This document shows, one piece after another, positions 16,669 to 31,229 of a stretch of 64,000 nucleotides of DNA. The position numbers and the translations under genes were made by a program. Numbering within the stretch: the first letter of the stretch is position 1; every line of letters starts with the position of its first letter. The notes under the pieces were generated by a model, which worked only from the letters and a program-made list of their open reading frames with translations, made no database searches and had not been told where the DNA came from. Source of the stretch: an uncultured Rickettsiales bacterium (lineage in GTDB: Bacteria; Myxococcota_A; UBA796; UBA9615); contig CAZEKB010000024.1 of assembly GCA_964512225.1 (NCBI GenBank), positions 678-64,677 on the forward strand. Direction: 5' to 3'.

Positions 16669-17067
16669 ATGCTCCACGGGTCGCCCTTCCTCCCGGCGTC
16701 GGGGACGACGACCGCCCTCGCGTCCTTCAATCAGCCCCTCTTCGACTCGGAAGACCTCCGCGCCCTGCTCCTCTGGGTCGCGCTGATCGCGGCCGTCCTC
16801 ACGGTCGTCTTCGCCGTGACGCACGCGTTCGTTGCCCGGCCCGCCGGGGCGCGCTCCCCCGGGTGGTCGCTCTCCTCCGGATGTGCGGGCGCGATCGTGG
16901 CGGGGCCGGCCATGGTGATCGGGTTCATCGCGGGCGCGGGCTCCCCCGGAGGAGCCCTCCTCGCGCTGGGATTGGTGTACGCCCTCTTCCTCGGGGGCTG
17001 CTTCCTTGCGCGCCGAAGCAAGCCGGGTTCGGCATCGAAGAGTGGAGGGCGCCGGGGGAGGTCGTGA
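16669..17067 (+). CDS. Small hypothetical membrane protein (2-3 TM)
   Basis: Hydrophobic segments LLLWVALIAAVLTVVFAV and GAIVAGPAMVIGFIAGAG...ALLALGLVYALFLGGCF with a basic C-terminal tail. No family recognised. Confidence 0.4.
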   Translation: MLHGSPFLPASGTTTALASFNQPLFDSEDLRALLLWVALIAAVLTVVFAVTHAFVARPAGARSPGWSLSSGCAGAIVAGPAMVIGFIAGAGSPGGALLALGLVYALFLGGCFLARRSKPGSASKSGGRRGRS

Positions 17068-17164
17068 GTCCTGTGGTGCCGTCGAAACTCTGTTGGAGAT
17101 TCTCGAAGCGATTCGGCCGGCTACGGCGTTGGACAGAGCAGACCAGCCACAAGGAGGAGCCGAA

Positions 17165-18445: not shown

Positions 18446-18931
18446 TCAGCCGGCGAGCTCTCGTGCCAGCAGAGCCCGACCGAAGCGCCAGTGCCGCTCC
18501 ACCCGGGACTTCGACATCCCCGTGACGTCCACGATCTCCGGCACGCTCATGCCTGCGAGCAGGCGGTGCACCACGACGAGAGCGCACTCCGCGTCGATGG
18601 ACTCCAGCTTCGTGAGCGCGTCGTTCAGGGCCACGATGTCCACCGTTCGAGCGCCCTCCCCCAGCCCCGTGAGCGTCGTCTGGACGGCGCCGCCCCCGCG
18701 CTTCGCGGCGGTGCGAGCTCGGGCCCTGTCGATGATGACCTGTCGCATGGCCCGCGCCGCGACGGCGATGAAGTGCACTCGATCGTTGTACCGACTCCGG
18801 TCGTCGAGCTTCAGCCACGCCTCGTGCAGGAGGTCGGTGGGAAAGAGCGACGCGGGCCTGCCGCGCTCCGAGTGGATGCGCTCCGCGAGTGTGGTCAGCT
18901 GGCGATACGTCCGGTCCGTGATGTCGTCCAC
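18446..18931 (-). CDS. ECF-type RNA polymerase sigma factor, of the Sig-70_X6/TIGR02999-like class usually paired with Ser/Thr kinases
   Basis: Region-2-like LLHEAWLKL...HFIAVAARAMRQVIIDRARARTAAKRGGG and region-4 HTH LVVVHRLLAGMSVPEIVDVTGMSKSRVERHWRFGRALLAREL. The gene sits 13 nt downstream of the kinase gene on the same strand. Confidence 0.8.
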   Translation of the reverse strand: MDDITDRTYRQLTTLAERIHSERGRPASLFPTDLLHEAWLKLDDRSRYNDRVHFIAVAARAMRQVIIDRARARTAAKRGGGAVQTTLTGLGEGARTVDIVALNDALTKLESIDAECALVVVHRLLAGMSVPEIVDVTGMSKSRVERHWRFGRALLARELAG

Positions 18932-18944
18932 GAAGCGAATCTAC

Positions 18945-21692
18945 TCACTCCTCGGGCTCTCGGGCGAGGCGGAAGCCCTGCGCGGCGCCGCGCACCCACG
19001 GGTAGTTGCCTCCTCGGTAGGCGCACCGTGCGTTTCGGGGGACGCTGTTCCACGACCCGCCTCGGAGTCCCCGCCGGCCCTTGGACGTGGGATCGCCGAG
19101 TACGGGAATCGCGACGCGCCGCGACGACAGGTCGGGGCCCTCGGGGGTGTAGCCGTCCAGACACCAGTCGCGCACCCCGCCCGCCACGCCGCGCACCCCG
19201 AACGGACTCTCATCGACCGGATGGCTCGTGACCGACTTCGGTGTCGCCCTGCTCTGGTGGCTGAAACGCCCACAGCTCCACGCCGAGTCGTGCGTATCCC
19301 CCCAGGGGAAGAACCGGCCGTCCACCCCGCGCGCGGCCTTCTCCCTCTCCAGCTCGCCCAAGAGCCGGTAGGGGAGCCCCGTACGAGCGCTCAGCCACTC
19401 GGCGTACGCCACTGCGCCCAGCCAGCCGACCATCATCACCGGATGATCCGCGTACCACTGGTCCCCGTCGCTGTCGATCGTCAGCTCGAACCGGCCGTCG
19501 GCCCCGCGCCCATAGAGCATCGCCCCGGACTCACCCAGGGACGCGGATCGCTCCCTCGGGACGTGCAGGAGGGCCTCTTGTTCGCGGCCCCGCGCGACCA
19601 GATCGTCGAGGAACGCCAGGTACTGCTCGTTGGTCACCGGGAATCGCTGGACGATGAGGTCGTGGCACCACAGTCGCCTCCGAGGCAAGGCCTCCGAGGC
19701 TTCGGAGTCGCCCCCGCACCAGAACCAACCGGCCGGCATCCACTGTTCGTGCGGACCGAGCGTGCCGGGAGTCGGTAGTCGCACCGGTTCCGGCGTGGTC
19801 GAGCCCGGCGGGATCCCGTCCCAGTGCTCTCCTCGGCCGATGCACACCGGGTAGCGGACCGGGCGGCCCCCGTCCGGGAGCCCCGGACGACGCACAGTGC
19901 AGAGGTAGCTGCCCCGATGTAGAGGGACCTCGACGAGGGGGGTTCGGCCGAGCGAGCGCTGGAACACCGGTACCAGCCGACGGTTGTGGAGCTCGTACCG
20001 GTGGAGGTCCACCTCCGCCCCCGGCGGGTCGGTGACGAGGGTGAGGGCGCCGTCCCCGCGCAGGTACGCCGCGTGGTCGGCGCGGTCGGGGTGGTGCTCG
20101 GGCAGCGCCGCGGTGTGCAGCCGCAGGAGCGTCTCGGGCCGAGTGGTCTCTCCTCGGTCCCGCTCGGCGGCGGCGTGCTCCGCGCGATAGCGAGCCGCGA
20201 GAGCGGCGTGCGCCTCCGGCAAGCGGGGCGCGTGGCTGAGCGCGGCGTGAAGCTGCAGCTCCTGCTCCAACTCGACCAGGTCCCCGCTCCGCTCGAGGGA
20301 GCGCGCCTCGTCTTCCTTCGTCCACCCGGCGGCCTTGTCCTCCTCCGGTCTCCAGCGCTCGACGCCCTTCAGGAGCGCGCCGGCCTCCTTCCGGAGCACG
20401 GCCGCCCGAGCCCGAAGCGCGTCGGCCTCCGAGGCCTTCGTCGCAGCCTTGTTCACGACGGCGAGCGCCTGCTCTCGTCTCCGGGATCCGGCGAGCCAAC
20501 TCGCGATGGCCGAGCTCAACGAGGACGCGTCGGGGAACCGATCGTCGGGGTCTCGCTCCATGGCTCGCAGACACGCCGCGAGCAACTCGGCGGGCACCGC
20601 GGGACCCGTCGCCGTGCGGATGTCCTGGGTCGTCTCCGGGGGGAGCCCGGCCGAGACCCGGTCGGCGGGCCGCGCGGGAGGCTCCGGGGGTCCGGCGAGC
20701 ACCTTGCGCAGCACGGCCATGGAGTCCCGAGCGTCGTACGGGGCGCGCCCGCTCAGGACCTCGTACAGGATGGCTCCCAGGGCATAGACATCGCTACGTC
20801 GGTCGATGCGGGCCACCTCCCCGCGGGCCTGCTCGGGGGCCATGTACGCGGGGGTCCCGGCCACGGCGCCGACGCGAGTGGCGTGAAGGCCCATCCGAGA
20901 CCGCTCCGTGACCACAGGATCGAGATCGCCTGCCTCGGCCGCCCAGTCGCGCCGGCCGAGGACCTTCGCGACCCCCCAATCGACGACCAGGACCGTGCCG
21001 TGCGGTCCGACCATCACGTTCGCCGGCTTGAGGTCCCGGTGGATCACGCCCCGCTCGTGGGCGTAGGCCATCGCGTCGCACACCTTGGCGAACGCCTCGA
21101 CGAGCCCGCGGAAGGTCCACTCGCGATCGCCATCCTCGAGGCCGCCCTCGTGTACCTCTTCGATGATCTCCCCGAGCGTTCGCCCGTGCACCACCTGCAT
21201 CGTGAAGTAGGAGCGTCCATCGGGCAGGGTCCCGATCTCATGGACGGGGACGATGCCGGGGTGCTGCAGCTGGGCCGCGCACTGCGCCTCCTGCACGAAT
21301 CGGGCGACGATGGAGGATCGAGTCATCAGCTCCGCTCGACAGAGTTTCATCGCCATGACCCGGTTCAGGTCCGGGTCCCGCACCCTGCGGACTTCGCCCA
21401 TGCCTCCCTGCCCGAGCGGCCCGAGGTCCTCGTATCGGCCGTAGTCGGCCTGTGGCCTGAGGGGTGCGGGCGGCGTGGCGTGGGGAGCTTCCGTGTCGTC
21501 GGGGACCGGGCTCAGGTCGAGCGTGTGCTCGAGACCCGGGGACTCGTCGCCCTCGAGGAGCGACAGGACCGCGACCTCGAGCCTGCGGTCCCCGGAGCAC
21601 AGCTCTCGGAGCCGCTCCTCACGGTCTTCCGGAGGCAGGGACACGACCTCGTCGAAGACAGGGCGGCAGCGCTTGTAAAGGTCCGTCTCCAC
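18945..21692 (-). CDS. Ser/Thr protein kinase with a C-terminal FGE-sulfatase (formylglycine-generating enzyme / SUMF1-like) domain
   Basis: Kinase subdomains LGQGGMGEV, AMK, HRDLKPANVMV, DWGVAK and GTPAYMAPE. The C-terminal ~300 aa read ...WMPAGWFWCGGD...VTNEQYLAFL...GGSWNSVPRNARCAYRGGNYP...GFRLAREP, which is typical of PF03781. GTG start. Confidence 0.85.
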   Translation of the reverse strand: METDLYKRCRPVFDEVVSLPPEDREERLRELCSGDRRLEVAVLSLLEGDESPGLEHTLDLSPVPDDTEAPHATPPAPLRPQADYGRYEDLGPLGQGGMGEVRRVRDPDLNRVMAMKLCRAELMTRSSIVARFVQEAQCAAQLQHPGIVPVHEIGTLPDGRSYFTMQVVHGRTLGEIIEEVHEGGLEDGDREWTFRGLVEAFAKVCDAMAYAHERGVIHRDLKPANVMVGPHGTVLVVDWGVAKVLGRRDWAAEAGDLDPVVTERSRMGLHATRVGAVAGTPAYMAPEQARGEVARIDRRSDVYALGAILYEVLSGRAPYDARDSMAVLRKVLAGPPEPPARPADRVSAGLPPETTQDIRTATGPAVPAELLAACLRAMERDPDDRFPDASSLSSAIASWLAGSRRREQALAVVNKAATKASEADALRARAAVLRKEAGALLKGVERWRPEEDKAAGWTKEDEARSLERSGDLVELEQELQLHAALSHAPRLPEAHAALAARYRAEHAAAERDRGETTRPETLLRLHTAALPEHHPDRADHAAYLRGDGALTLVTDPPGAEVDLHRYELHNRRLVPVFQRSLGRTPLVEVPLHRGSYLCTVRRPGLPDGGRPVRYPVCIGRGEHWDGIPPGSTTPEPVRLPTPGTLGPHEQWMPAGWFWCGGDSEASEALPRRRLWCHDLIVQRFPVTNEQYLAFLDDLVARGREQEALLHVPRERSASLGESGAMLYGRGADGRFELTIDSDGDQWYADHPVMMVGWLGAVAYAEWLSARTGLPYRLLGELEREKAARGVDGRFFPWGDTHDSAWSCGRFSHQSRATPKSVTSHPVDESPFGVRGVAGGVRDWCLDGYTPEGPDLSSRRVAIPVLGDPTSKGRRGLRGGSWNSVPRNARCAYRGGNYPWVRGAAQGFRLAREPEE

Positions 21693-21776: not shown

Positions 21777-22802
21777 TCAGAGCCGGGGCTCGACGCGCAC
21801 CATCCAGGCGTCGTCGCCTTCGTCGTCGAAGTCGATCGACACCGGCAGAAACCGCTCGACCATGGTGGCGTTCGTGCGCGTGTGCAGCGACGGCTCGACC
21901 GTGCGGAAGCGTCCGCCGCCCGCCAGGGCCATGGGGATGAGGAGCTGATCGGCGAGGTACTCGTCCACGGGCACGTCGGCGGCCATCCAGGCTTTCGCCG
22001 CCTCGATCACTTCGTCGGCGACCTCTTCGGCGGGCTTGCCCTTGCGGCCCACGCCGTCGAACACGACGGTCCCGTGCTTGAAGTCCACCTGGAGGAAGAC
22101 GGCGTTGCCGGGGCCGAACGCGTCCACCTCCTCCACGGACATCCGGCTGCGCACGAGCCCCAGGGCCGCCTTGAACCGCTTCATCTCGCGGTGCCCGATG
22201 CGGGGCGACAGGTTCGCCACGACCGCCCACGCCTTCAGCGTGCGGATCGGCCCGCGTCGCAGCAGATCGACCCGCTGGAGGCCGTCGGCCGGGGGCGTGA
22301 TCGCGGCGCTGAACCGTCCGCCCCCGGCGGGCGCGAAGCCCACGCGGTCCAACGTCACGCCGACCCGCGCGCCCATTCGACGCAGCACCGCCAGGAACGA
22401 CAGCTCCAGGAAGGGGATCGGGGGAGCCCAGGGGTTGTGGGTGCCGCCCTCGAGCTCGACGGTGCTCGGCCCGTCGGCCAGCAGCAGGGCGGGGAGGATG
22501 GTCTGCAGCACGAGCGTCGTGGAGCCCGCGCTGCCGATGGAGAACCGGAAGGTCCCCCCGTGCAGGCCCGACGGCTCGAAACGCAGGCGCCCGGAGCCGA
22601 GCTCGTCGCCTTCGACGTACGCCGCGCCCACGCGCGTGGCGGCCCGCACGCACGTGAGGTGCTGGCGCATGAGCCCCGGCTTCTTCCGCCCGGCCCGGAT
22701 GTTCTCCAGGACGAACGGCGTGCCGGTGACGACGGACAGGCCCAACGCCGTGCGCAGGACCTGTCCGCCGCCTTCTCCTTCGGAGCCGTCGATGGTCAGC
22801 AT
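21777..22802 (-). CDS. rtcA: RNA 3'-terminal phosphate cyclase
   Basis: MLTIDGSEGEGGGQVLRTALGLSVVTGTPFVLENIRAGRKKPGLMRQHL...GSAGSTTLVLQT...EYLADQLLIPMALAGGG is collinear with E. coli RtcA, including the conserved H in ...RQHLT. Confidence 0.92.
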   Translation of the reverse strand: MLTIDGSEGEGGGQVLRTALGLSVVTGTPFVLENIRAGRKKPGLMRQHLTCVRAATRVGAAYVEGDELGSGRLRFEPSGLHGGTFRFSIGSAGSTTLVLQTILPALLLADGPSTVELEGGTHNPWAPPIPFLELSFLAVLRRMGARVGVTLDRVGFAPAGGGRFSAAITPPADGLQRVDLLRRGPIRTLKAWAVVANLSPRIGHREMKRFKAALGLVRSRMSVEEVDAFGPGNAVFLQVDFKHGTVVFDGVGRKGKPAEEVADEVIEAAKAWMAADVPVDEYLADQLLIPMALAGGGRFRTVEPSLHTRTNATMVERFLPVSIDFDDEGDDAWMVRVEPRL

Positions 22803-22815
22803 GTCCGACTCCAGC

Positions 22816-24387
22816 TTAGGCCGCGCTCGCCGGAGCGAGCTCGACCGCTTCGATGGCCGCGACGTGCCGCTCGGGCCCGCCGGTGCCGTTCGTGAACGCG
22901 GCCACGACGTCGAACACCGCGTCGGAGAAGCCCCCGACGTTGAGGATGTCCGTCGCCTCGGTCGCCTGGACCGTCCGGTGCGGCTGGATGTCGACGCACA
23001 CCAGCCGCGCCTTCGGGTTCCGAGCCTTGAGCTTGCGCCACTGGTCCATCGTCGCCGTGGCGCCGGATCGAGCGTCGACCCAGCTCTCGTTGTCGGAGAC
23101 GAAGACGACCGTGTCGACCTTCGCCTTCCGGCGGTTCAGCTCGGCCAGGGGCGCGCTGCAGGACGTCCCGCCGCCCCCCACGGACGCCAGCTTCTCCGCG
23201 TTCGTCATCACCGAGTCGCGCGCGTTCAGTCGAACGTCCACGACGCGGTGCTCGAACGGGAGGACGGTCGCCCGCGGGTTGTTGCGGAGGATCGCCGCCG
23301 CGAACAGGCCCGCGACGTCGACGCAGCGCACCTTCGACGTGGACCCCTTGCGGTAGCCCGTCGCCGCGCACCGCATCGAGCCGGACACGTCTGGGCAGAC
23401 GACGACGCGCCCGGGCAGGCCCGGGACGTTGTGGAGCGCGTGCTCCATCGCCGTCTGCAGCGCGTCGCGCACGACCGGAGGGACCCCCTCGCCCGCCGCC
23501 TTGTAGGCCATCAGGAGCTGGTACGGGAAGACGCGAGCGCGCCGCACCTGCCGCTCGTCGCCGAGCCGCTTCGCGATCTTCTCGGTCATCCCGTCCACCT
23601 CGAAGACGCCGTGGCGCGCGAAGGTGTTCAGGTTCATCCGCGTCGTCTGCCAGGTCGCCGTCTCTGCGATCCGCGCCCAGCCCCGTCGCCCGATGGGCAG
23701 CGAGGTGAGCATGGAGAACGGGACGTCCGGGATCGGCGCCGAGGCCGGGTCGGCCTTGAACGCCTCGAACGCCTGGAGCTCCTCGGGGAGCGCCGAGACC
23801 TCGACGTCCTTGCCGATGAGCCGCCCGTAGAGCGCCGAGCGCGTGGCGGTCTTCGGCTTCGGGTGGACCATCTTGACGATGTCCGCGAGGGACGGATCGG
23901 AGCCCATGGACGCGGCCAGGATCCGGCGATCCGAGCGCGCGTCCAGCCACTCGCGGATCAGCCGCTTCGGGCGCGTGCCGAAGGACTTCCGCCCCACGAC
24001 GCCCGAGCGCACGATCTGCACGTAGTTCCGCAGCATGCGGCCGTTGTCGACGACGCGCGGGAAGACGATCGGCAGGAGCTCGGGCGCGCGGACCGTGAGG
24101 ACCGCGACCAGGAGCGCCGGCATGTCCTTCATGTGGCCGCGCTCGCGGGCGAAGATCGCCGTCTTGGCCAGGAACTCCACCGGGACGTCGCACGCCATCT
24201 CGAGCGTCGCCTTCAGGTGGTCGGCGTCGGTCGCGTAGAAGGTCCCGTTCAGGCAGCCCGTGGCCGCGAACTGCGCCAGGGCCTCGCGGGCCGTCCGCTC
24301 GTACGCCGCCCCGCCCGCCTCGTTCCTGGTGGACGCGCGCTCGAGGAGTCGGCCGAAGTAGGAGCTGAAGAGGTTCTTGTTCGCCAT
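22816..24387 (-). CDS. rsr: Ro60-related protein Rsr (TROVE domain + C-terminal vWA/MIDAS domain)
   Basis: MANKNLFSSYFGRLL...TROVE-like N-terminal ~350 aa, then a vWA motif VVVCPDVSGSM...GGGTSCSAP. GGGAG lies 7 nt upstream of the ATG. The gene sits 13 nt upstream of rtcA on the same strand. The track ORF runs on to 25449, but the extra 354 codons are R/P junk. Confidence 0.85.
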   Translation of the reverse strand: MANKNLFSSYFGRLLERASTRNEAGGAAYERTAREALAQFAATGCLNGTFYATDADHLKATLEMACDVPVEFLAKTAIFARERGHMKDMPALLVAVLTVRAPELLPIVFPRVVDNGRMLRNYVQIVRSGVVGRKSFGTRPKRLIREWLDARSDRRILAASMGSDPSLADIVKMVHPKPKTATRSALYGRLIGKDVEVSALPEELQAFEAFKADPASAPIPDVPFSMLTSLPIGRRGWARIAETATWQTTRMNLNTFARHGVFEVDGMTEKIAKRLGDERQVRRARVFPYQLLMAYKAAGEGVPPVVRDALQTAMEHALHNVPGLPGRVVVCPDVSGSMRCAATGYRKGSTSKVRCVDVAGLFAAAILRNNPRATVLPFEHRVVDVRLNARDSVMTNAEKLASVGGGGTSCSAPLAELNRRKAKVDTVVFVSDNESWVDARSGATATMDQWRKLKARNPKARLVCVDIQPHRTVQATEATDILNVGGFSDAVFDVVAAFTNGTGGPERHVAAIEAVELAPASAA

Positions 24388-24402
24388 GTCCGGCTCCCGT
24401 TC

Positions 24403-24499
24403 GAAAGCGACGGTCGGCGAGTCTTGGTCGAGACACTTACGCGGGGTTCGAACCCGCCGTACCAGGGTGTAGTCCCGACGGCATCCGACCGTCGCTCCT
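24403..24499 (-). ncRNA. Candidate Y-RNA-like / tRNA-like element in the rsr leader, carrying a canonical T-arm
   Basis: On the minus strand: a 12-bp helix AGCGACGGUCGG (24485-24496) pairs with CCGACCGUCGCU (24406-24417). An inner 8-bp helix follows. The apical hairpin GCGGG-UUCGAAC-CCCGC (24441-24457) is a textbook tRNA T-arm with a G53-C61 closing pair and a T54-T55-C56-G57-A58 loop. It lies 16 nt upstream of the rsr ATG. Bacterial rsr loci commonly encode YrlA-type Y RNAs with tRNA-like modules. Confidence 0.35.
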
Positions 24500-24505
24500 T
24501 CTCTC

Positions 24506-24522
24506 TTCACCGGGCGTGCCAA
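24506..24522 (-). promoter_or_regulatory. Possible sigma-54 -24 element (TTGGCACG) upstream of rsr with a poor -12 (GTGAA)
   Basis: Minus strand TTGGCACGcccgGTGAA. The -24 half is perfect but GC at -12 is absent, so this is weak. Confidence 0.2.
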
Positions 24523-24553
24523 CTTCGGGAAACGCACGACGTCGGCGTGATCG

Positions 24554-24601
24554 TTCGATTCGCGGCGATCGAAAGCTATCCAACTGGCTAGTGAGCTAGC
24601 C
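24554..24601. promoter_or_regulatory. Two palindromes in the rtcR/rsr divergent region: TTCGAT-N8-ATCGAA (24554-24573) and GGCTAG-tgag-CTAGCC (24586-24601)
   Basis: Perfect inverted repeats seen in the sequence. The second ends 8 nt before the rtcR ATG. They are candidate operator / UAS sites or parts of the RNA element. Confidence 0.25.
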
Positions 24602-24609
24602 TGCTGGCC

Positions 24610-26202
24610 ATGCGCGACAACGTCTTCGTGGGGATCGTCGGCACCCAGCTCGACCGGGGGACCGGGGCGAAGCGCTGGAGCAAGTGGCGGCCGACGGTCT
24701 CGGCGTTCCAGCACGACGAGCTGCTGTTCCGGCGCGCCGAGCTGATCGTGGAGCGTCGCTGGAAGCGGCTGGGGGAGCAGATCGCCGAGGACATCCGCAC
24801 GACGTCGCCGGAGACGGACGTCCGGATCACGCTCGTGGAGTTCAAGGACGCGTGGGACTTCGAGGAGGTGTGGGAGGTCCTGTACGGGTTCTCGCGGGAG
24901 CTGCGGATCGACCCCGAGCGCGAGGACTGCATGGTCCACATCACGACCGGGACGCACGTCGCGCAGATCTGCCTGTTCCTGCTGGCCGAGTCCCGTCACC
25001 TGCCGGGCCGCCTCCTGCAGACGTCGCCCCGGGGCGGCAAGACGGACTCCCGGGACCCGAGCTGGACGGCGATCGACCTCGACCTCTCCCGCTACGACCG
25101 CATCGCCGCGCGGTTCCGCGAGGAGCAGAGGGCGGGCGTCTCGTTCCTGAAGTCCGGGATCGATACGCGCAACGTCGTCTTCAACCAGCTGATCGATCGG
25201 GTCGAGCAGGTCGCGATCGCGACGACCGCGCCGCTGCTGCTCATGGGGCCGACGGGCGCCGGCAAGACGCGGCTCGCGCGTCGCATCTACGAGCTGAAGC
25301 GGTCGCGTCGGCAGGTGACGGGGAACTACGTCGAGGTGAACTGCGCGACCCTGCGCGGCGACCTCGCCATGTCGACCCTGTTCGGGCACACGCGGGGCGC
25401 CTTCTCGGGGGCGCAGTCCGAGCGGGCCGGGCTGCTGCGCACGGCCCACGGCGGGGTGCTCTTCCTGGACGAGATCGGAGAGCTGGGCGCCGACGAGCAG
25501 GCGATGCTGCTCCGCGCGCTCGAGTCGCGGACGTTCCTGCCCGTGGGGTCGGACGAGGAGGCGTCGTCGGACTTCCAGCTGCTGGCGGGGACGAAGCGAG
25601 ACCTCTACGAGGCGGTGGCCGACGGGGACTTTCGGGAGGACCTCCTGGCGCGGATCAACCTCTGGACGGTGAAGCTCCCGGGCCTGCGGGAGCGCCCCGA
25701 GGACATCGAGCCCAACCTGGACTACGAGTTGGAGGAGTACGCGCGCAAGAACGGCCGACGCATCTCCATGAACAAGGAGGCCCGGGCGGACTTCCTGGCC
25801 TTCGCCCGGGGCTCCAACGCGGCTTGGCGGGGCAACTTCCGTGACCTGAACGCGGCGGTCCTTCGCATGGGCACCCTCGCGCCGGGCGGACGGATCGACG
25901 TCCGCGTCGTGGACGAAGAGTTGGGTCGGCTCCGCGACGCTTGGCGCCGCCCGGACCGCCGGACGGGTCGCGACGACCTGCTCCAGGCGGCGCTCGGGGA
26001 CCGGGTCGCGGAGCTCGACCGCTTCGACCGCGTGCAGCTCGCCGAGGTGCTCGAGGTGTGCGGCCGGTCCCGCACCCTGGCCGAGGCCGGCCGGGAGCTC
26101 TTCGCGGTCTCGCGCCTGCGACGTTCCACGCGCAACGACGCCGACCGCGTGCGCAAGTACTTGGCCAAGTGGGGCCTCTCCAAGGAGGACGTGCTGCGCT
26201 GA
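24610..26202 (+). CDS. rtcR: Sigma-54-dependent transcriptional regulator RtcR (N-terminal CARF-like domain + AAA+ sigma-54 activation domain + C-terminal HTH)
   Basis: The N-terminus MRDNVFVGIVGTQLDRG matches E. coli RtcR MRKTVAFGFVGTVLD. Walker A LMGPTGAGKT, the GAFTGA-like segment FGHTRGAFSGA, and an arginine finger. Confidence 0.88.
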   Translation: MRDNVFVGIVGTQLDRGTGAKRWSKWRPTVSAFQHDELLFRRAELIVERRWKRLGEQIAEDIRTTSPETDVRITLVEFKDAWDFEEVWEVLYGFSRELRIDPEREDCMVHITTGTHVAQICLFLLAESRHLPGRLLQTSPRGGKTDSRDPSWTAIDLDLSRYDRIAARFREEQRAGVSFLKSGIDTRNVVFNQLIDRVEQVAIATTAPLLLMGPTGAGKTRLARRIYELKRSRRQVTGNYVEVNCATLRGDLAMSTLFGHTRGAFSGAQSERAGLLRTAHGGVLFLDEIGELGADEQAMLLRALESRTFLPVGSDEEASSDFQLLAGTKRDLYEAVADGDFREDLLARINLWTVKLPGLRERPEDIEPNLDYELEEYARKNGRRISMNKEARADFLAFARGSNAAWRGNFRDLNAAVLRMGTLAPGGRIDVRVVDEELGRLRDAWRRPDRRTGRDDLLQAALGDRVAELDRFDRVQLAEVLEVCGRSRTLAEAGRELFAVSRLRRSTRNDADRVRKYLAKWGLSKEDVLR

Positions 26203-26219
26203 TCCGGCATGATCCGGCC

Positions 26220-27317
26220 ATGAAGATCGCCGTCGCCGTCCTGCCCGTCGCCCTGGCCACCTGCTTCGGGGCCGAAGACCCGTACGACGACGACGACGAC
26301 GCCGCCCCCCTCTTCGATCCGGTCCTCGCGGCGGAGCTGGAGGCGACCCTGCAGGACCGGTTCGGCGAGCACGACCCGCTGGGCATCGTCGCCGCCGTCC
26401 AGATGCCGGACGGGACCCGCTGGATCGGCGCGGTGGGGGACGCCGACCTGGACGGCACGGCCCTCGCCGGCGACGAGGCGTTCAAGGTCGCGAGCGTGAG
26501 CAAGACGTTCGTCGCGGCGCTGGTATTGGAGGCGGGGCTCGACCTCGACGGGACGATCGAGGAGCACATCGACCACCCGCGCGCGGGCGAGATCACGGTG
26601 CGGATGCTCCTGAACCACTCGGCGGGGGTGCCCGAGTTCAGCACGACCCCGGCGTTTCAGAACGCGGGCCTGGTCGAGTGGACGGACGACGAGCTCCTGG
26701 GGCTGGTGGTCGACGCGCCGCTGCAGTTCGAGCCGGGATCGGGCTACGCGTACTCGAACACGCACTACGTGATGCTCTCGATGATCGTGGAGGCGACGGC
26801 CGGGAGCCCGTGGCAGGGGGAGCTGCAGACGGAGCTCGCCGACCGGCTCGGCCTGGTGGGGACCTACGCGCCGGACGGGACCGACGGCTGGGGCGACGTC
26901 GTGCGCGGGGAGCTGAGCGGGCAGGACCTCACGGACTCGATCCGGCCGAGCGGCATCGGCGGGGCGGGCAACGTGGTGTCCACCGCCTGCGACCTGGGCG
27001 CCTGGGCCCGCGGCCTGTGGGGCGGGTTCCTGCTGGGCGACGAGACCACCGCGCTGCTCGCCGAGGACCCGATGCCCCTGGGGCCCGGGATCGGGTACGG
27101 CCTCGGCACGCTCGTCCTCGAGGACGACACGGGGCTCCAGCTGGCGCACAACGGCGCCCTGAACGGGTACGTCTCCTGGGTCGGGTACCGGCCGGAGCAG
27201 GACGTGGGGTTGGCCGTCCTGGCCAACTCCTGGTTGCCGGGCAACCCCCCGAACGTGGCGTACTCGGCGGACATCGCAGACGCCCTGTGGGCCGACGTTC
27301 TGGAGCAGTCGGAGTAG
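26220..27317 (+). CDS. Serine hydrolase of the beta-lactamase / penicillin-binding-protein (class C-like) family, lipoprotein
   Basis: MKIAVAVLPVALATCFG lipobox, SxxK motif ASVSKTF and YxN motif YSNTHY. It starts 18 nt after the rtcR stop. Confidence 0.8.
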   Translation: MKIAVAVLPVALATCFGAEDPYDDDDDAAPLFDPVLAAELEATLQDRFGEHDPLGIVAAVQMPDGTRWIGAVGDADLDGTALAGDEAFKVASVSKTFVAALVLEAGLDLDGTIEEHIDHPRAGEITVRMLLNHSAGVPEFSTTPAFQNAGLVEWTDDELLGLVVDAPLQFEPGSGYAYSNTHYVMLSMIVEATAGSPWQGELQTELADRLGLVGTYAPDGTDGWGDVVRGELSGQDLTDSIRPSGIGGAGNVVSTACDLGAWARGLWGGFLLGDETTALLAEDPMPLGPGIGYGLGTLVLEDDTGLQLAHNGALNGYVSWVGYRPEQDVGLAVLANSWLPGNPPNVAYSADIADALWADVLEQSE

Positions 27318-27326
27318 GCTGTCTTC

Positions 27327-29000
27327 GTGACGGAGACAAACGAATCCGGGCGTCGCCTGGCGCTCGTCCAACTCGCCGCCGCGGCGATCGGGCGCGACGA
27401 CTACCTCGAGATCATCATCCGGTGCCTCGCCGATGCGCTCGAGGTGAGGTGGGCGTTCGTATCCGAGCTCGTGGTGACGGACCCGACCACGGCCCGCACC
27501 CTCGCGTTCTGGGGAGACGGGGGCTACCTGGACAACGTCGCCTATCCGCTCGAGGGGACGCCCTGCGCGGACGTATACGACCACTCGGTGTGCGTGGTCA
27601 CGGCCGGCGTGCAGGCCGCCTACCCCGACGACCACATGCTCGCCGAGATGGGGGCCGAGGCGTACGTGGGCCTGCCGTTCCGGGACGAAGGCGGGCGCGC
27701 GATCGGGCACCTGGGCGTCATGCACGACGGTCCGGTGGAGGCCGACCTGGTCGACACCGCGCTGTTCCGAGTATTCGCGGCCTTGGCCGGCTCCGAGTTC
27801 TCGCGCCGCCGGGCCGAGGAGGAGAAGGCGCGCGTCGAGCGTCGGCTCATGGAGGCCGAGCGGCGCGAGCACCTGGGGCTGCTCGCGGGCACGATCGCGC
27901 ACGACCTGAACAACCTGCTGGTGGGCATCACCGCGAACGTCGGGCTGGCCGAGGGGGAGCTCCCCGCGGCGTCCGAGGCGCGGCCCTACCTGCGGGCCAT
28001 CGAAGAGACCGGGCAACGCGCCGCCGAGCTCGCCCGGCAGATGCTCGCGTACAGCGGGCGCGGGCGCTTCGAGGTGGGGCCGGTGGACCTCGCGCGCCTC
28101 GTTCGGGAGACGACCGATCTGCTTCGCTCGTCGCTCCCCCGCACGGCCGCGATCGACTGCCACGTGGAGGCCGCGGTCCCCCCGGTGCAGGGCGACACGA
28201 CCCAGCTGCGGCAGCTCGTCATGAACCTCGTCGTCAACGGCGTCGAGGCCCTGGAGGGCAGCCCGGGACAGATCTCGGTGCGCCTCCGTCCCCATCGGTT
28301 CGACCCCGCGAAGGCGCGCGCCCAGGTCGTCGCCCGCGACGCCGTGGAGGGGACCTACGTCGCGCTCGAGGTGAAGGACGACGGCATGGGCATGGACGAC
28401 GCGACCCTGAACCGCGTCTTCGACCCCTTCTTCACCACCAAGCCGAAGGGCAACGGGCTCGGGCTCGCGGCCGTGCAGGGCATCGTCCAGGGCAACCACG
28501 GCGCCCTGCTCGTGGACAGCGCGCCGGGCGAGGGCACCACCTTCCGCGTCTTGCTGCCGACCAGCTCGGACGCCCCCGCGCCCGCGCCGAAGGCTCCCGC
28601 CGCCGCCGAGTTCCCCGCCGGGCTGCGCGCGCTCGTCGTCGACGACGAGGCGATGGTCCGCGCCGCCCTCACCTCCGTCCTGAAGCGCAACGGGTTCTCC
28701 GTGGTCCAGGCCGCGGACGGCACCCAGGCGGTGACCGTGCTGCAGGCGTCCACCGACGCGTTCGACGTGGTGCTCATGGACCTCTCGATGCCCCACATGG
28801 GGGGCGACGAAGTCGTGGACTGGATGACCGAGCGGATGGCTCGGATCCCGATCGTGCTCATGAGCGGCTACGACCGGCACGAGCTCGCGCAGCGGTTCCC
28901 GCCCGACTCGGTCACCGCGTTCCTGCAGAAGCCGTTCACGCTGCAGGGGGCTCTCGGCGCGGTGCGGGTGGCGCTCCAAGCAGAGACCGCCGACCCGTAG
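27327..29000 (+). CDS. Hybrid sensor histidine kinase (GAF - HisKA - HATPase_c - REC), cytoplasmic
   Basis: GTG start. H-box AHDLNNLL, N-box NLVVNGVEA and DDGMGMD...GNGLGLAAV. C-terminal receiver LVVDDE...VLMDLSMPHMGG...KPF. Confidence 0.85.
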   Translation: MTETNESGRRLALVQLAAAAIGRDDYLEIIIRCLADALEVRWAFVSELVVTDPTTARTLAFWGDGGYLDNVAYPLEGTPCADVYDHSVCVVTAGVQAAYPDDHMLAEMGAEAYVGLPFRDEGGRAIGHLGVMHDGPVEADLVDTALFRVFAALAGSEFSRRRAEEEKARVERRLMEAERREHLGLLAGTIAHDLNNLLVGITANVGLAEGELPAASEARPYLRAIEETGQRAAELARQMLAYSGRGRFEVGPVDLARLVRETTDLLRSSLPRTAAIDCHVEAAVPPVQGDTTQLRQLVMNLVVNGVEALEGSPGQISVRLRPHRFDPAKARAQVVARDAVEGTYVALEVKDDGMGMDDATLNRVFDPFFTTKPKGNGLGLAAVQGIVQGNHGALLVDSAPGEGTTFRVLLPTSSDAPAPAPKAPAAAEFPAGLRALVVDDEAMVRAALTSVLKRNGFSVVQAADGTQAVTVLQASTDAFDVVLMDLSMPHMGGDEVVDWMTERMARIPIVLMSGYDRHELAQRFPPDSVTAFLQKPFTLQGALGAVRVALQAETADP

Positions 29001-29011
29001 GCCGGCGGTCT
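28984..29011. terminator. GC hairpin (AGACCGCCG-N10-CGGCGGTCT) spanning the HK stop codon, between convergent genes
   Basis: A 9-bp perfect stem seen in the sequence. The 24-bp gap runs to the rtcB stop. Confidence 0.3.
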
Positions 29012-29024
29012 CGAGGGGCTCGGG

Positions 29025-30293
29025 TCAGCCCTTTACGCAGACGACCTGCTTGAGGGTGTGCACGATCTCGACGAGGTCGGACTGCGCGGCCATCACCGCG
29101 TCGATGTCCTTGTACGCCGCGGGCGTCTCGTCGATCACTCCTCGGTCCTTGCGGCACTCCACCCCGGCCGTGGCCGCGCGGTGGTCCTTGAGCGTGAAGC
29201 GCTTCTTCGCCTCGGTCCGAGACATCGCCCGCCCCGCTCCGTGGGAGCAGGAGTGGAAGCTCTCGGGGTTGCCCTTGCCGCGGACGATGTAGCTCTTCGC
29301 GCCCATGCTGCCCGGGATGATGCCGAGGTCGCCCTCGCCCGCCCGGACCGCGCCCTTGCGCGTCAGCCACACCTTCTTGCCGTAGTGCACCTCCTGCTGC
29401 ACGTAGTTGTGGTGGCAGTTCACGGCCATCGCGTCGGTCGTCCACTTCTTGCGGATCAGCTTCACGCCGCGCACCGCCTTGATCACCGCCGCCATCATCA
29501 GGTTGCGGTTCTCGCGCGCGAATCGCTGCGCCCAGCCGACCGCCTGCACGTAGTCGTCGAAGTGCTCCGTGCCCTCCGTCAGGTACGCCAGGTCGCGGTG
29601 CGGCAGGTTGATGAAGAAGCGCTCCATCTCCTTCTGAGCGACGCGGATGAAGTGGCTCCCGATCCGGTTCCCGACGCCGCGGGAGCCGCTGTGCAGCATG
29701 AACCAGACACGATCCGCTTCGTCGAGGCACACCTCCACGAAGTGGTTGCCGGACCCGAGCGTCCCCAGGTGAACCCGGTGGTTCGAGCTGCGGATCCTCG
29801 GGTGCTTGTCGCAGATGACGTCGAACTCGTCGTCGAGCGTCTTCCACACCTGGTCCACCGCCTTCGGGACGCGGTCCCGCCACGACCCCTTGTCGCCGCG
29901 TCGCCCGCCGGACGTCCGCCCGTGGGGGACGGCCGCCTCGATCGCGTTGCGCACGGGGGAGAGGTCCGTGGGCAGGTCCGACGCCGTCAGCGACGTCTGG
30001 ACTGCCATCATCCCGCACCCGAGATCGACGCCGACCGCGGCCGGGATGATCGCCTTGTGCGTGGGGATGACCGAGCCGATCGTCGCGCCGCGACCGATGT
30101 GCGTATCCGGCATCGCCGCCACCCACTTGTGGATGAACGGCATCGACGCGGTCTGCTTGAGCTGCGTGATCGCGCCGCTCTCGACGGGCACGCCGCGAAC
30201 CCACGCCTTCACGACGGCGTCGCCGTTCGCGGAGTGGCGGGGCGTCTTGTAGACCTCGTAGCTGCGGGACGAATCTCGGTGGGTCGTCGTCAT
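29025..30293 (-). CDS. rtcB: RNA-splicing ligase RtcB (3'-phosphate / 5'-OH RNA ligase)
   Basis: Motifs DTHIGRGATIGSV, GSGNHFVEV, NCHHNYV and SCSHGAGRAMSR (His-GMP site). GAGGAG lies 7 nt upstream of the ATG at 30293. The track ORF adds 13 spurious codons. Confidence 0.92.
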   Translation of the reverse strand: MTTTHRDSSRSYEVYKTPRHSANGDAVVKAWVRGVPVESGAITQLKQTASMPFIHKWVAAMPDTHIGRGATIGSVIPTHKAIIPAAVGVDLGCGMMAVQTSLTASDLPTDLSPVRNAIEAAVPHGRTSGGRRGDKGSWRDRVPKAVDQVWKTLDDEFDVICDKHPRIRSSNHRVHLGTLGSGNHFVEVCLDEADRVWFMLHSGSRGVGNRIGSHFIRVAQKEMERFFINLPHRDLAYLTEGTEHFDDYVQAVGWAQRFARENRNLMMAAVIKAVRGVKLIRKKWTTDAMAVNCHHNYVQQEVHYGKKVWLTRKGAVRAGEGDLGIIPGSMGAKSYIVRGKGNPESFHSCSHGAGRAMSRTEAKKRFTLKDHRAATAGVECRKDRGVIDETPAAYKDIDAVMAAQSDLVEIVHTLKQVVCVKG

Positions 30294-30323
30294 GGTCGGC
30301 TCCTCGTTTCGCCGAATCTCGTG

Positions 30324-30340
30324 TGCGAGCACCGTGCCGG
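30324..30340 (-). promoter_or_regulatory. Sigma-54 promoter for rtcB (minus strand CGGCACG-gtgc-TCGCA, GG-N10-GC)
   Basis: Matches the TGGCACG-N4-TTGCW consensus at 10 of 12 positions, with correct -24/-12 spacing, about 30 nt upstream of the rtcB ATG. This fits RtcR (a sigma-54 activator) control. Confidence 0.55.
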
Positions 30341-30403
30341 CGTCGTCGATCGCGCGACGTCGTGCGATCGGCCTCTCCGGGCGCCGTCACACACTAGACA
30401 TAT

Positions 30404-30465
30404 GGATAGAGAACTATCCGATTCACCGACCCGTTCACAATGCGTCGGGCGTTTCACCTTGAAAG
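30404..30465. promoter_or_regulatory. AT-rich regulatory island: palindrome GGATAG-agaa-CTATCC (30404-30419) plus three TTCAC direct repeats (30422, 30434, 30453)
   Basis: GC content drops markedly at 30385-30470 in an otherwise ~70% GC window. The island lies 65-140 nt upstream of the rtcB sigma-54 promoter, and is a candidate RtcR UAS and/or the promoter of the divergent lipoprotein gene. Confidence 0.3.
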
Positions 30466-30587
30466 GGTTTTCGGTGACGCTTTTCGGGCCGGTGCGGCGA
30501 CGTCGGCCGTTCAGCTTCGCCGGCACGGATGGTGCTTCGTACCGCGGCACGACGGCAGTTCCCCTGCCGCCCCCGACCGAGGCCGCA

Positions 30588-31229
30588 ATGACTCGCATCC
30601 CCGTCCGACTCCTCGCCCTCTTCGCCCTGCTCCTGGCGGGCTGCGCTCCCTTCGACGGCGACGGAGGCGATGCGTTCCGACCCTCGGACGACGGCGTCGA
30701 CGCGCCCGACGTGGATCCCGTGGACGGCTCGGACCTGGGCGACGACGACGACGACGACGGCGGCAACGAGCACCGGCCCGCGGACGACGACGACGACGAC
30801 GACGAGGGCGGCGGCGGCGACGACGCCTGGGACGCGAGCCCGCCCGAGGGCCTCGCCGACGGCTCCGAGCTGCACATCGACCTGAGCTGCGGCCTGCTCG
30901 ACGGCCTGCACCGCAAGGTCTTCGAGAAGGACGGCGACGAGTGGCTCGAGGTCGACGGCGAGGGCGCCGGGCCGATCGCGGAGCTCCGAGCGTGCTTCGT
31001 GGGGAGCGACGAGAAGTTCCTCACCTGGGACGACACCCCCGAGATGTACATCTTCGCGGGCGGCCTGCACCACGACATCACGCCGACGTCGGTCGAGGAC
31101 CGGTGGATGGGCCTCGTATACCCGGAGGAGGATTCGTCGCGGGAGTGCCTCGAGGCGCTGGCCGACGCGAACCTCGAGTGGCCGATCCGCATGACCCTCA
31201 CGGTCACGAACGTCATTCCGGCTCCGTAG
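30588..31229 (+). CDS. Hypothetical lipoprotein with poly-Asp low-complexity linker
   Basis: MTRIPVRLLALFALLLAGCAPFDG lipobox, then DDDDDDGGNEHRPADDDDDDDEGGGGDD, then a folded C-terminal domain. The track ORF start at 29058 is antisense junk. Confidence 0.6.
   Translation: MTRIPVRLLALFALLLAGCAPFDGDGGDAFRPSDDGVDAPDVDPVDGSDLGDDDDDDGGNEHRPADDDDDDDEGGGGDDAWDASPPEGLADGSELHIDLSCGLLDGLHRKVFEKDGDEWLEVDGEGAGPIAELRACFVGSDEKFLTWDDTPEMYIFAGGLHHDITPTSVEDRWMGLVYPEEDSSRECLEALADANLEWPIRMTLTVTNVIPAP

Follow-up and report, generated by a model that had tools for sequence, protein, structure and literature searches.

A split RtcR-type RNA-repair locus with one rtcR and two candidate enhancer-promoter modules

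Genes and Features of the Locus

The stretch of DNA analysed here (the window, 64,000 nucleotides) comes from an uncultured marine bacterium. It encodes the RNA-repair proteins RtcA, Rsr and RtcB and the activator RtcR, surrounded by the features listed in Table 1. The first-pass annotation had placed six genes at this locus (rtcA, rsr, rtcR, a beta-lactamase-family lipoprotein, a kinase and rtcB). Every one of these coordinates is correct, all six genes look intact, and their identities are directly established. That annotation had missed several further features: a Y RNA encoded ahead of rsr, the copies of the candidate enhancer, the recurring CGACGTCG element and a sigma-54-type promoter in addition to those of rsr and rtcB.

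Table 1. Positions and strands of the features in the window (a dot marks features without strand)
Feature	Position	Strand	Basis or remark
rtcA, RNA 3'-terminal phosphate cyclase	21777-22802	-	Pfam RTC 253 bits + RTC_insert; second gene of Y RNA-rsr-rtcA unit
rsr, Ro60 orthologue	22816-24387	-	Pfam vWA_Ro60 72.6 bits
Truncated YrlA-like Y RNA	24404-24498	-	rsr leader; Rfam YrlA
Sigma-54-type promoter of Y RNA-rsr-rtcA unit, TGGCACG-CCCG-GTGAA	24506-24521	-	Non-canonical -12: TGA for TGC
CGACGTCG palindrome, rsr side	24537-24544	.	GACGTC core exactly 17 nt upstream of GGCAC
UAS copy 1, GGCTAG-CTCA-CTAGCC-AGTT-GGATAG-CTTT-CGATCG	24566-24601	.	Abuts rtcR start codon; candidate enhancer
rtcR, CARF-AAA+-HTH sigma-54 activator	24610-26202	+	Pfam RtcR 236 bits + Sigma54_activat 163 bits
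Beta-lactamase-family (PF00144) lipoprotein	26220-27317	+	Pfam 149 bits; 17 nt past rtcR stop
GAF-HisKA-HATPase-REC hybrid histidine kinase	27327-29000	+	Pfam; 9 nt past beta-lactamase-family gene
10-bp GC-rich hairpin, candidate bidirectional terminator without U-tract	28983-29012	.	24-nt convergent kinase/rtcB junction
rtcB, 3'-phosphate/5'-OH RNA ligase, RtcR-linked clade, monocistronic	29025-30293	-	Pfam RtcB 436 bits
Sigma-54-type promoter of rtcB, CGGCACG-GTGC-TCGCA	30324-30339	-	Sigma-54 consensus match
CGACGTCG palindrome, rtcB side	30355-30362	.	GACGTC core 17 nt upstream of GGCAC
UAS copy 2, GGATAG-TTCT-CTATCC-ATAT-GTCTAG	30390-30419	.	Inverted-repeat pattern match; candidate enhancer
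Mirrored promoter-like module, CGACGTCG then CGGCACG-GATG-GTGCT	30498-30536	+	Sigma-54 consensus, 2 mismatches
Lipoprotein of unknown function, 213 aa	30588-31229	+	Translation; lipobox LLAGC

The rtcA product is 46.7% identical to E. coli RtcA, and its adenylylation histidine aligns (PSCH/PSLH). The rsr product matches the Pfam TROVE family weakly (21.8 bits, under its cutoff of 23) and is 59-63% identical to many database proteins named 60 kDa SS-A/Ro or TROVE-domain. The rtcR product shares 56.8% identity with E. coli RtcR and clears the NCBIfam equivalog cutoff (751 vs 650 bits); its GAFTGA loop is replaced by GAFSGA, a variant that occurs in 2 of 120 database homologues and in none of 80 genome loci. 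RtcB (61% identity to E. coli RtcB) retains D75, C78, H185, H281, H337, R189, K299, R341 and R345. Since it is 62-67% identical to the products of rtcR-adjacent rtcB genes at other loci, the earlier description of this rtcB as relocated is fair. The organism is without a close sequenced relative, with next-best identities of 63% for Rsr and 65% for RtcR.

Given that the source is metagenomic, the split layout could in principle stem from mis-assembly or a chimeric contig. This explanation is almost inconceivable: the layout recurs, with identical gene order, in at least 20 independently assembled metagenome contigs from JGI, ENA and Logan. These contigs come from different samples and assemblers and are 99.98-100% identical over >20 kb. 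The sole discrepancy, in L002, is a stretch of N that fills a scaffold gap.

Promoters and Candidate Enhancers

The near-consensus sigma-54 promoter sequence that had been proposed upstream of rtcB is indeed present. Its predicted transcript start near position 30313 would leave a 20-nt leader with a GAGGAG Shine-Dalgarno sequence. Also confirmed is the description of the rsr promoter as a perfect -24 half without GC at -12: TG is kept at -14/-13, and the -12 C is changed to A. The distance of this promoter to the rtcR ATG, approximately 90 nt, resembles that in canonical Myxococcota loci, and its GTGAA recurs in L020, a locus in which rsr also comes first. From the usual -24/-12 geometry, the rsr-unit transcript is predicted to start near 24495, at the foot of the Y RNA stem. 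Almost all rtc promoters of relatives read TGGCACG-N4-yTGCw; TCGC at -12 and CGGCAC at -24 also occur among them. With no C at -12 of the rsr promoter and a rare GAFSGA loop in RtcR, activity could be weak or altered. The sigma-54 consensus is not enriched in the window (4 sites with at most 2 mismatches vs 5.6 expected), so the promoter matches alone are unconvincing. It is the placement of the promoters together with their associated upstream elements that is far beyond chance.

In Myxococcota relatives, GGATAG-N4-CTATCC and a third half-site precede the promoter and abut the rtcR start; E. coli has CGATA-N6-TATCG at the equivalent position. We built a position weight matrix (PWM) of this candidate upstream activating element (UAS; GGATA-N6-TATCC plus the third half-site, abutting rtcR) exclusively from RtcR loci outside the window, 80 in all. 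Most of its weight comes from Myxococcaceae and Archangiaceae sequences that are closely related to one another, and its information content thus exaggerates how many independent observations stand behind it. Across 128 kb the PWM is positive in only two control regions, and the next site scores -0.9 bits. UAS copy 2, upstream of rtcB, is the best match of the window (22.1 bits), and copy 1 scores 14.1, 10.9 and 5.9 bits in overlapping registers. The inverted-repeat pattern itself has 2 matches in the window vs 0.23 expected. The repeat centre of copy 1 lies 75 nt from the -24 GG of rsr; for copy 2 the distances are 74 nt to the -24 GG of rtcB and 111 nt to that of the promoter facing the other way. 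Apart from these motifs the two control regions have diverged (44.5% ungapped identity, Smith-Waterman p ~0.01-0.04). Conservation of the motifs alone within diverged surroundings argues for selection.

A 2016 review lists the RtcR enhancer sequence as not known (PMC4987338), and the papers and passages checked contained no defined sequence, so that we can only infer that the inverted repeat is the RtcR site. It might instead be an operator or promoter feature of rtcR, or the site of another regulator. The rtcB-upstream copy would then be silent on RtcR control, and a different enhancer-binding protein could act on rtcB. In canonical loci the repeat does adjoin the start codon of rtcR, which is also the place to expect a promoter or operator of that gene, and the CGACGTCG element common to these promoters suggests that they may be acted on by one or more additional factors. 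However, the window and two other loci (L018 and L087) carry extra copies before relocated targets with no adjacent rtcR, each at an enhancer-like distance from a sigma-54 promoter; the element therefore accompanies the sigma-54 target rather than rtcR. The repeat also occurs alongside RtcR orthologues in organisms ranging from E. coli to Myxococcota, and we consider an identity other than the RtcR enhancer unlikely.

Another reading is that a second, ancestral rtc locus once existed and left the rtcB control region as its decaying remnant, with rtcB now expressed constitutively or from another promoter and free of co-regulation; this is very unlikely. The rtcB -24 box does start with C for T, its -12 element reads TCGC, and rtcA and rtcB are usually unlinked in bacteria according to Das and Shuman (PMC3854526). 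Yet the identical variant bases occur in the sole rtc promoters of relatives, the GG and GC of the rtcB promoter are intact and correctly spaced, and the UAS before rtcB is the top family-PWM match of the window. Motifs have been kept while the flanking sequence diverged, and no RtcR pseudogene remnant was found near rtcB.

The CGACGTCG element is lineage-specific. On the rtcB side it sits in a near-palindrome, GATCGCAC-GACGTC-GCGCGATC. GACGTC-N17-GGCAC has 3 matches in the window vs 0.28 expected, 0 of 100 shuffles reach 3, and all three are the sigma-54-type sites. The third of these belongs to the mirrored module, whose CGGCACG-GATG-GTGCT follows the GACGTC core by 17 nt and precedes the start codon of the lipoprotein gene by 51 nt. 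Together, this module and the arm carrying the rtcB promoter form a 42-nt inverted repeat that is 71% complementary, with CGACGTCG and CGCCGGCACGG as conserved blocks. The 213-aa lipoprotein gene is a possible third sigma-54 unit. Its product has a poly-Asp linker and a beta-rich C-terminal domain, no Pfam match, and only two homologues (73% and 63% identical), neither of which adjoins rtc genes or is preceded by these elements. A structure model (pLDDT 61) gave weak lipocalin/LolA-like matches.

A YrlA-like RNA in the rsr Leader

The rsr leader encodes a long basal stem, the conserved internal-loop motifs AUGC, CUAC and AAGACUCG, and a T-arm (GCGGG-UUCGAAC-CCCGC). The D-arm and acceptor-like stem of full-length YrlA are absent; YrlB-type RNAs that keep the T-arm only are known. 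YrlA is the top match of the leader among 4227 Rfam families (24408-24491, E = 0.0011), at 25.8 bits and hence far under the gathering score of 69, and YrlB is one of two other weak matches listed. The predicted fold has -45.9 kcal/mol (z = -2.35), and alignment with 8 YrlAs shows conservation of the 5' module and T-arm. A same-strand Y RNA just before rsr is also present in M. smegmatis and D. radiodurans (PMC4201824) and in the Sandaracinaceae loci L005 and L007. The Y RNA of the window differs from these cases in its position, after the sigma-54-type promoter but ahead of the ribosome-binding site of rsr. It would therefore make up the 5' end of the mRNA for rsr and rtcA, from which it would presumably be processed.

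Comparison with Known Loci and Proposed Regulation

Gene orders were compared directly at approximately 65 informative RtcR loci. Nearly all of them have rtcR divergent from rtcB-rtcA or from rsr-gap-rtcB-rtcA, and none has the order of the window. In nearly every other genome one enhancer is paired with one operon (rtcBA or rsr-Y RNA-rtcBA). The split layout is a rearranged form of this known RtcR-controlled RNA-repair operon; the system itself is not new.

The component set (RtcR, sigma-54 promoter, Rsr, Y RNA, RtcB and RtcA) is shared with the rsr-yrlBA-rtcBA locus of Salmonella enterica (PMC7790460, PMC9879122, PMC3854526), as are the divergence of rtcR from an rsr-led unit and the expected signal, RNA ends with 2',3'-cyclic phosphate. 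Salmonella has one promoter for the whole operon, with the Y RNAs between rsr and rtcB, whereas in the window rtcB is served by a separate enhancer-promoter module at a distance of 5.8 kb and the only Y RNA, a truncated one, stands in the leader before rsr. Also unlike in Salmonella, rsr and rtcA are fused, with a 13-nt gap that contains GGAG. The rtcR|rtcBA loci of E. coli and Myxococcota encode orthologous RtcR (57% to E. coli) and RtcB (61%) and, like the window, have a GATA-N8-TATC-type repeat abutting rtcR with a sigma-54 promoter downstream; in contrast to the window they lack rsr and have a single enhancer and a single promoter. The enhancer-promoter spacing of 74-75 nt compares with 61.5 nt in Myxococcaceae, 67.5 nt in Sorangium and ~107 nt in E. 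coli and other gamma-proteobacteria.

The same principle, one rtcR with two separate sigma-54 units, is found in L018 (Myxococcota MAG), L087 (Polyangiaceae MAG) and L010 (Anaeromyxobacter sp.). Each has a consensus sigma-54 promoter upstream of a relocated rsr, accompanied by a second clear PWM match in L018 and L087 and by weak UAS-like repeats in L010. In these loci rtcBA stay together; in the window rtcB is the relocated unit, so that cyclase and ligase are separated.

The conserved UAS of rsr-rtcA and of rtcB, at nearly equal spacing from -24, supports the proposal that these two uncoupled units belong to a single RtcR/sigma-54 regulon. Judging from sequence, the locus is probably a rearranged RNA-repair regulon in uncoupled units, with a single rtcR and the enhancer and promoter module present twice. 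By analogy with Salmonella and E. coli, RtcR would be activated by RNA fragments that end in a 2',3'-cyclic phosphate (activation mechanism: PMC7790460, PMC9650030), bind the GGATA-N6-TATCC-type enhancer and drive sigma-54 RNA polymerase. From UAS copy 1, abutting rtcR, it would direct a transcript with the short Y RNA first, followed by rsr and rtcA. From copy 2 it would direct monocistronic rtcB and probably also, through the mirrored promoter, the divergent lipoprotein gene.

The Genes Downstream of rtcR

The beta-lactamase-family protein has a visible signal peptide and lipobox (LATC); its NCBIfam matches to class C/AmpH/PBP4B are weak and below cutoff. The kinase matches generic hybrid-kinase models under their equivalog cutoffs. 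Both genes had been described as inserted inside the regulon. A better description is that they form the end of an apparent rtcR-bla-kinase transcription unit, and most likely they are lineage-specific passengers. A working role in the system, such as feeding envelope stress into RNA repair, is in our view rather unlikely. The very tight gaps (17 and 9 nt), a GC3 resembling that of the neighbours, the lack of a detectable terminator upstream of the kinase/rtcB hairpin, and the second lipoprotein gene opposite rtcB behind a sigma-54-type promoter speak for such a role. Against it, no homologue of either adjoins rtcR in 80 RtcR loci, and both proteins match generic families only. RtcR is not an obvious partner for the kinase, because it has a CARF input domain and no receiver domain. 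As passengers or otherwise, the two genes would be co-transcribed behind rtcR, and the apparent unit would end at the hairpin shared with rtcB, which folds with -25.2 kcal/mol (z = -3.5).

Gene content of the locus

All conclusions below come from sequence analysis of an uncultured organism, in which expression and binding are predicted. Reading frames were picked by third-position GC content (the window has about 71% GC) and then checked with Pfam. Both agree with the gene coordinates and identities proposed in the first-pass annotation, and so does the sequence of the 13-nt gap between rsr and rtcA on the minus strand, which contains a GGAG. The layout could in principle be an assembly artefact, but marine metagenome assemblies from JGI, ENA and Logan contain an identical arrangement in at least 20 contigs, at 99.98–100% identity, which rules this out. 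At this level of identity, the same assemblies give no signal of population polymorphism. In one of these comparison contigs (L002, 6473–6522) the hybrid kinase gene appears as two reading frames; the break comes from a gap in the scaffold, filled with N and poly-G/C, and not from a real frameshift.

Features of the locus and its surroundings (window positions)
Feature	Position	Strand	Evidence or sequence
90-nt coding repeat arrays	32–9848		
RTX (HemolysinCabind) repeat protein	16919–18376		
Ser/Thr kinase–FGE-sulfatase fusion and ECF sigma factor	18446–21692	−	
rtcA	21777–22802	−	Pfam RTC 253 bits, RTC_insert 52 bits
rsr	22816–24387	−	Pfam vWA_Ro60 72.6 bits, above cutoff
YrlA-like match	24408–24491	−	Rfam RF02553
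rsr promoter, putative	24506–24521	−	TGGCACG-CCCG-GTGAA
Candidate enhancer, copy 1	24566–24601		GGCTAG-CTCA-CTAGCC-AGTT-GGATAG
rtcR	24610–26202	+	Pfam RtcR 236 bits, Sigma54_activat 163 bits
Tandem duplication	26200–26219		TGATCCGGCA/TGATCCGGCC
Beta-lactamase-family lipoprotein (bla)	26220–27317	+	Pfam PF00144
GAF-HisKA-HATPase-REC hybrid kinase (HK)	27327–29000	+	Pfam
rtcB	29025–30293	−	Pfam RtcB 436 bits
rtcB promoter, putative	30324–30339	−	CGGCACG-GTGC-TCGCA
Candidate enhancer, copy 2	30390–30419		GGATAG-TTCT-CTATCC-ATAT-GTCTAG
Third promoter, putative	30521–30536	+	CGGCACG-GATG-GTGCT
Lipoprotein	30588–31229	+	

The rtc enzymes look functional, since the residues checked against the E. coli proteins are kept: D75, C78, H185, H281, H337, R189, K299, R341 and R345 of RtcB, which include the metal-binding and GMP-histidine residues, and the adenylylated histidine of RtcA. 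RtcR is full length, with the N-terminal RtcR/CARF, the central sigma-54-interaction AAA+ and the C-terminal DNA-binding regions all present. It matches the NCBIfam RtcR equivalog (751 bits, cutoff 650) and is 56.8% identical to E. coli RtcR in a global alignment that includes the C-terminus. Its sigma-54 contact loop (residues 261–266, window 25390–25410) reads GAFSGA, not GAFTGA, a rare variant that 2 of 120 database homologues have, and none of the 80 genome loci described below. A PspF T86S variant still gives some sigma-54 complexes (PMC3467059). The only other GAFSGA RtcR that we found, P0136, is encoded by an orphan gene (L089, 6959–8569) with no rtcA, rtcB or rsr within 7–10 kb and no clear enhancer repeat or sigma-54 promoter upstream.

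Rsr combines the TROVE HEAT-repeat ring and the vWA domain of Ro60 proteins, though its TROVE score of 21.8 bits lies just under the cutoff of 23. The protein aligns over its full length, at 59–63% identity, with hundreds of proteins containing both domains; against the NCBIfam Rsr equivalog it scores 105 bits, far under the strict cutoff of 900. The window contains no further rtc paralogues or pseudogene remnants.

Gene order in related genomes

The organism has no near sequenced relative: the closest other Rsr is 63% identical and the closest other RtcR 65%. We therefore mapped the window proteins onto 80 RtcR loci (57–63% identity) taken from reference genomes with 10-kb flanks. In about 50 of them, including those of Myxococcus, Corallococcus, Archangium and Sorangium, rtcR faces rtcB-rtcA; in another 16, among them Dyella, Rhodanobacter, Verrucomicrobiota, Planctomycetota and Bryobacteraceae, it faces rsr, a gap and then rtcB-rtcA. 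Variant orders occur in L010, L018 and L087, where rsr lies downstream of rtcR and convergent with it, and in L013, L071 and L076. None of the 80 loci combines rsr fused to rtcA with an rtcB beyond rtcR. The canonical pattern, adjacent and co-oriented rtcB and rtcA divergent from rtcR, is broken in the window: rtcA directly follows rsr, and rtcB lies beyond rtcR-bla-HK and converges with them. The proposed order itself is confirmed.

The displaced RtcB is 62–67% identical to rtcR-adjacent RtcBs, compared with 27–31% (36% in L076) for the other RtcB clade that occurs in some loci; it is therefore the canonical RtcR-linked ligase, moved to another place. That a rearrangement occurs is unsurprising, since Das and Shuman had already recorded variants in order and orientation, and noted that linkage of rtcA with rtcB is exceptional among bacteria (PMC3854526). 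What the window shows is the well-known Rtc system in rearranged form; its components and logic are known and its biology is not new.

Rsr itself was dropped as a synteny anchor. Its nearest homologues, from Sandaracinaceae, are encoded by stand-alone rsr genes with tRNA arrays, which are silent on the split. In these genomes (L005, 9348–9970; L007, 38–2477 and 4247–4458) the tRNA arrays precede rsr and are interleaved with one to three YrlA genes, and L007 also contains an HNH nuclease gene; the set resembles an rsr cassette of a mobile or phage-like kind. In a Bryobacteraceae MAG (L026, 11641–12205), six tRNA genes lie directly downstream of rtcR. In Sorangium sp. So ce1014 (L071, 8866–11605), rtcR and rtcA diverge directly, and rtcB is absent from the surrounding 10 kb. 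This locus is a further candidate for a split regulon, and an rtcB elsewhere in that genome might carry its own enhancer.

A candidate RtcR enhancer at both control regions

In Myxococcota, a conserved inverted repeat, GGATAG-N4-CTATCC, together with a third half-site (GGATAG) after it, abuts the rtcR start codon. Gamma-proteobacterial loci contain GATAG/CTATC repeats at the equivalent place, and in E. coli CGATA-TTTCAT-TATCG abuts rtcR, 107 nt upstream of the GG of its promoter. The window contains two copies of this element, one adjoining rtcR and the other upstream of rtcB. A degenerate pattern of the inverted repeat matches the window exactly twice, at these two places, where 0.23 matches are expected. 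To avoid circularity, we derived a position weight matrix solely from the relatives and ran it over both window strands. It gives 22.1 bits at the rtcB site and, in overlapping registers of the rtcR-rsr region, 14.1, 10.9 and 5.9 bits; no unrelated site in the window exceeds −0.9 bits. The distance from the centre of the repeat to the promoter GG is 75 nt for rsr and 74 nt for rtcB, compared with 61.5 nt in Myxococcaceae, 67.5 nt in Sorangium and about 107 nt in gamma-proteobacteria. The claim that rsr-rtcA and rtcB are uncoupled units of one RtcR regulon is thus supported at both control regions by a matrix that owes nothing to the window.

These two regions could be the product of a recent duplication. 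Outside the motifs their ungapped identity is 44.5%, where the background is 30% (Smith–Waterman p ~0.01–0.04); we reject a recent event on this near-background similarity. The regions are old copies that have retained nothing but their functional-looking blocks.

Scanned across the 80 loci (1.4 Mb), the matrix finds a site near rtcR in 49 and few other matches. In L018 and L087, it matches about 100 nt upstream of the relocated rsr, with a consensus sigma-54 promoter downstream of each match; the relocated rsr of L010 also has a consensus sigma-54 promoter, with weaker enhancer-like repeats. These second units suggest that one rtcR serving two enhancer–promoter units recurs in Myxococcota, and that the window belongs to a small set in this phylum where RtcR serves more than one promoter. 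In the window and in at least two relatives the repeat goes with the sigma-54 target gene rather than with rtcR, which argues against a mere rtcR operator. In a 2016 review the RtcR enhancer is given as not known (PMC4987338), and the passages of a 2022 paper that mention the E. coli UAS do not give its sequence (PMC9650030); we therefore assign this repeat to RtcR by our own inference, and treat it as a candidate. In effect, the split dissects the control region naturally and yields a concrete, testable candidate enhancer, and its consensus is a useful by-product. If RtcR can serve more than one promoter, annotation should seek regulon members away from rtcR.

Putative sigma-54 promoters and a mirrored third site

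Both sigma-54-type sequences reported in the first-pass annotation are present at their places. The rtcB promoter has GG at −24 and GC at −12 with 10-nt spacing. The rsr promoter has a perfect −24 half and the G at −13, and the C at −12 is replaced by A; L020 carries the same GTGAA variant. The divergent intergenic regions of relatives, when anchored at the −24 GG, converge on a near-universal TGGCACG-N4-yTGCw. Consensus matches are not enriched in the window as a whole (4 against 5.6 expected with up to two mismatches, 48 against 66 with three), so we do not use them as lone evidence. Generic scans for sigma-70 promoters and intrinsic terminators returned nothing useful in this 71% GC DNA. 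The GAFSGA loop and the non-canonical −12 elements coincide at this locus; any link is speculative.

The pattern GACGTC-N17-GGCAC occurs three times in the window (0.28 expected; none of 100 shuffles reaches three): at the rsr promoter, at the rtcB promoter and at a third sigma-54-type site, which also has the GG and GC elements and lies 51 nt upstream of a second lipoprotein gene. This lineage-specific pattern is found in none of the relatives' loci. The third site and the rtcB promoter arm form a 42-nt imperfect inverted repeat with the conserved blocks CGACGTCG and CGCCGGCACGG. Candidate enhancer copy 2 lies between these mirrored promoters, at 74 nt from the GG of the rtcB promoter and 111 nt from that of the third site.

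The product of this lipoprotein gene has no Pfam family match, and its predicted structure gave weak lipocalin/LolA-like similarity only in a fold search. Only two homologues were found; neither is near rtc genes or preceded by these elements, which suggests that the third promoter arose together with the arrival of rtcB. We also used these homologues to seek closer relatives and the insertion boundaries, and discarded them for lack of synteny with the window and of the promoter elements.

A YrlA-like RNA in the rsr leader

Between the rsr promoter and start codon, Rfam places a YrlA-like match. Its score of 25.8 bits is far below the gathering threshold of 69, yet it is the top match among 4227 families in this leader (E = 0.0011); YrlB is one of two other weak matches listed. 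The fold has a long stem at its base, a perfect T-arm and an internal loop that contains the conserved AUGC, CUAC and AAGACUCG motifs, which fit the consensus. The element is encoded on the rsr strand 17 nt upstream of the rsr ATG, and Y RNAs are expected on this strand within 4 kb of rsr (PMC4201824). The tRNA-like module is incomplete, with the T-arm only and without D-arm and acceptor-like stem; about 45 nt are missing relative to eight aligned YrlAs. This RNA would work like a Y RNA of the YrlB or minimal type, and we do not class it with the canonical YrlAs. Canonical loci have YrlA between rsr and rtcB; Y RNAs upstream of rsr occur in Sandaracinaceae, and have been described in Mycobacterium smegmatis and Deinococcus radiodurans (PMC4201824). 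Transcription is predicted to start near 24495, where the stem has its foot, so that the rsr-rtcA transcript would begin with the Y RNA.

Proposed function of the split

The ligand that activates RtcR is a 2′,3′-cyclic phosphate made with the help of RtcA, and RtcB has been proposed to remove it (PMC7790460). Activated RtcR would bind both enhancers and switch on sigma-54 polymerase at the promoters of rsr and rtcB, and perhaps at that of the lipoprotein gene; the Y RNA would be released from the leader and then bind Rsr. The split would part the cyclase arm from the ligase arm of the feedback loop. Separate promoters for the ligand-making cyclase and the ligand-consuming ligase offer a natural test of the proposed loop.

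It is conceivable, if on balance doubtful, that the regulon is a three-promoter network. Enhancer 1 would drive Y RNA-rsr-rtcA, and enhancer 2, between its mirrored sigma-54 promoters, would drive rtcB and a recruited extracytoplasmic lipoprotein; all three promoters would need an additional factor on the CGACGTCG palindrome, with its GACGTC core exactly 17 nt upstream of GGCAC. Given the roles of RtcA and RtcB, the split would then place the positive- and negative-feedback arms behind promoters of different strength and, if true, be a natural experiment in response tuning.

Genes between and beside the two units

Only 17 nt separate rtcR from bla and 9 nt bla from HK, and HK and rtcB converge on a 24-nt spacer with a 10-bp GC hairpin (−25.2 kcal/mol, z = −3.5). 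From these gaps and the hairpin spacer after HK, we read rtcR-bla-HK as one predicted transcription unit. The first-pass annotation placed a signalling kinase and a serine hydrolase inside the regulon. Their position between the two units holds, but membership in the regulon does not follow: no bla or kinase homologue lies beside rtcR in the 80 relatives' loci, both proteins match generic NCBIfam families only, and they are most likely lineage-specific passengers. A search for mobile-element scars or flanking repeats at bla-HK or rtcB gave nothing convincing and exposed the mirrored promoter arms. A tandem duplication runs across the rtcR stop codon and ends one base short of the bla start codon, and may be a junction scar of the event that placed bla-HK after rtcR.

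On the other side of the locus, rtcA is followed on the same strand by genes for a 915-aa fusion of Ser/Thr kinase and FGE-sulfatase domains and for an ECF sigma factor; the 84-nt gap between rtcA and these genes contains no detectable terminator. The nearby RTX repeat protein has 27/54-nt coding repeats at 17787–17997. Positions 32–9848 of the window hold several long arrays of a 90-nt (30-aa) Cys/Asp-rich coding repeat with a consensus of roughly EICDNGIDDDGDGxVDCADPEC..., with up to about 29 copies each and higher-order periods of 180, 363 and 459 nt. These arrays probably encode very large repetitive secreted proteins.
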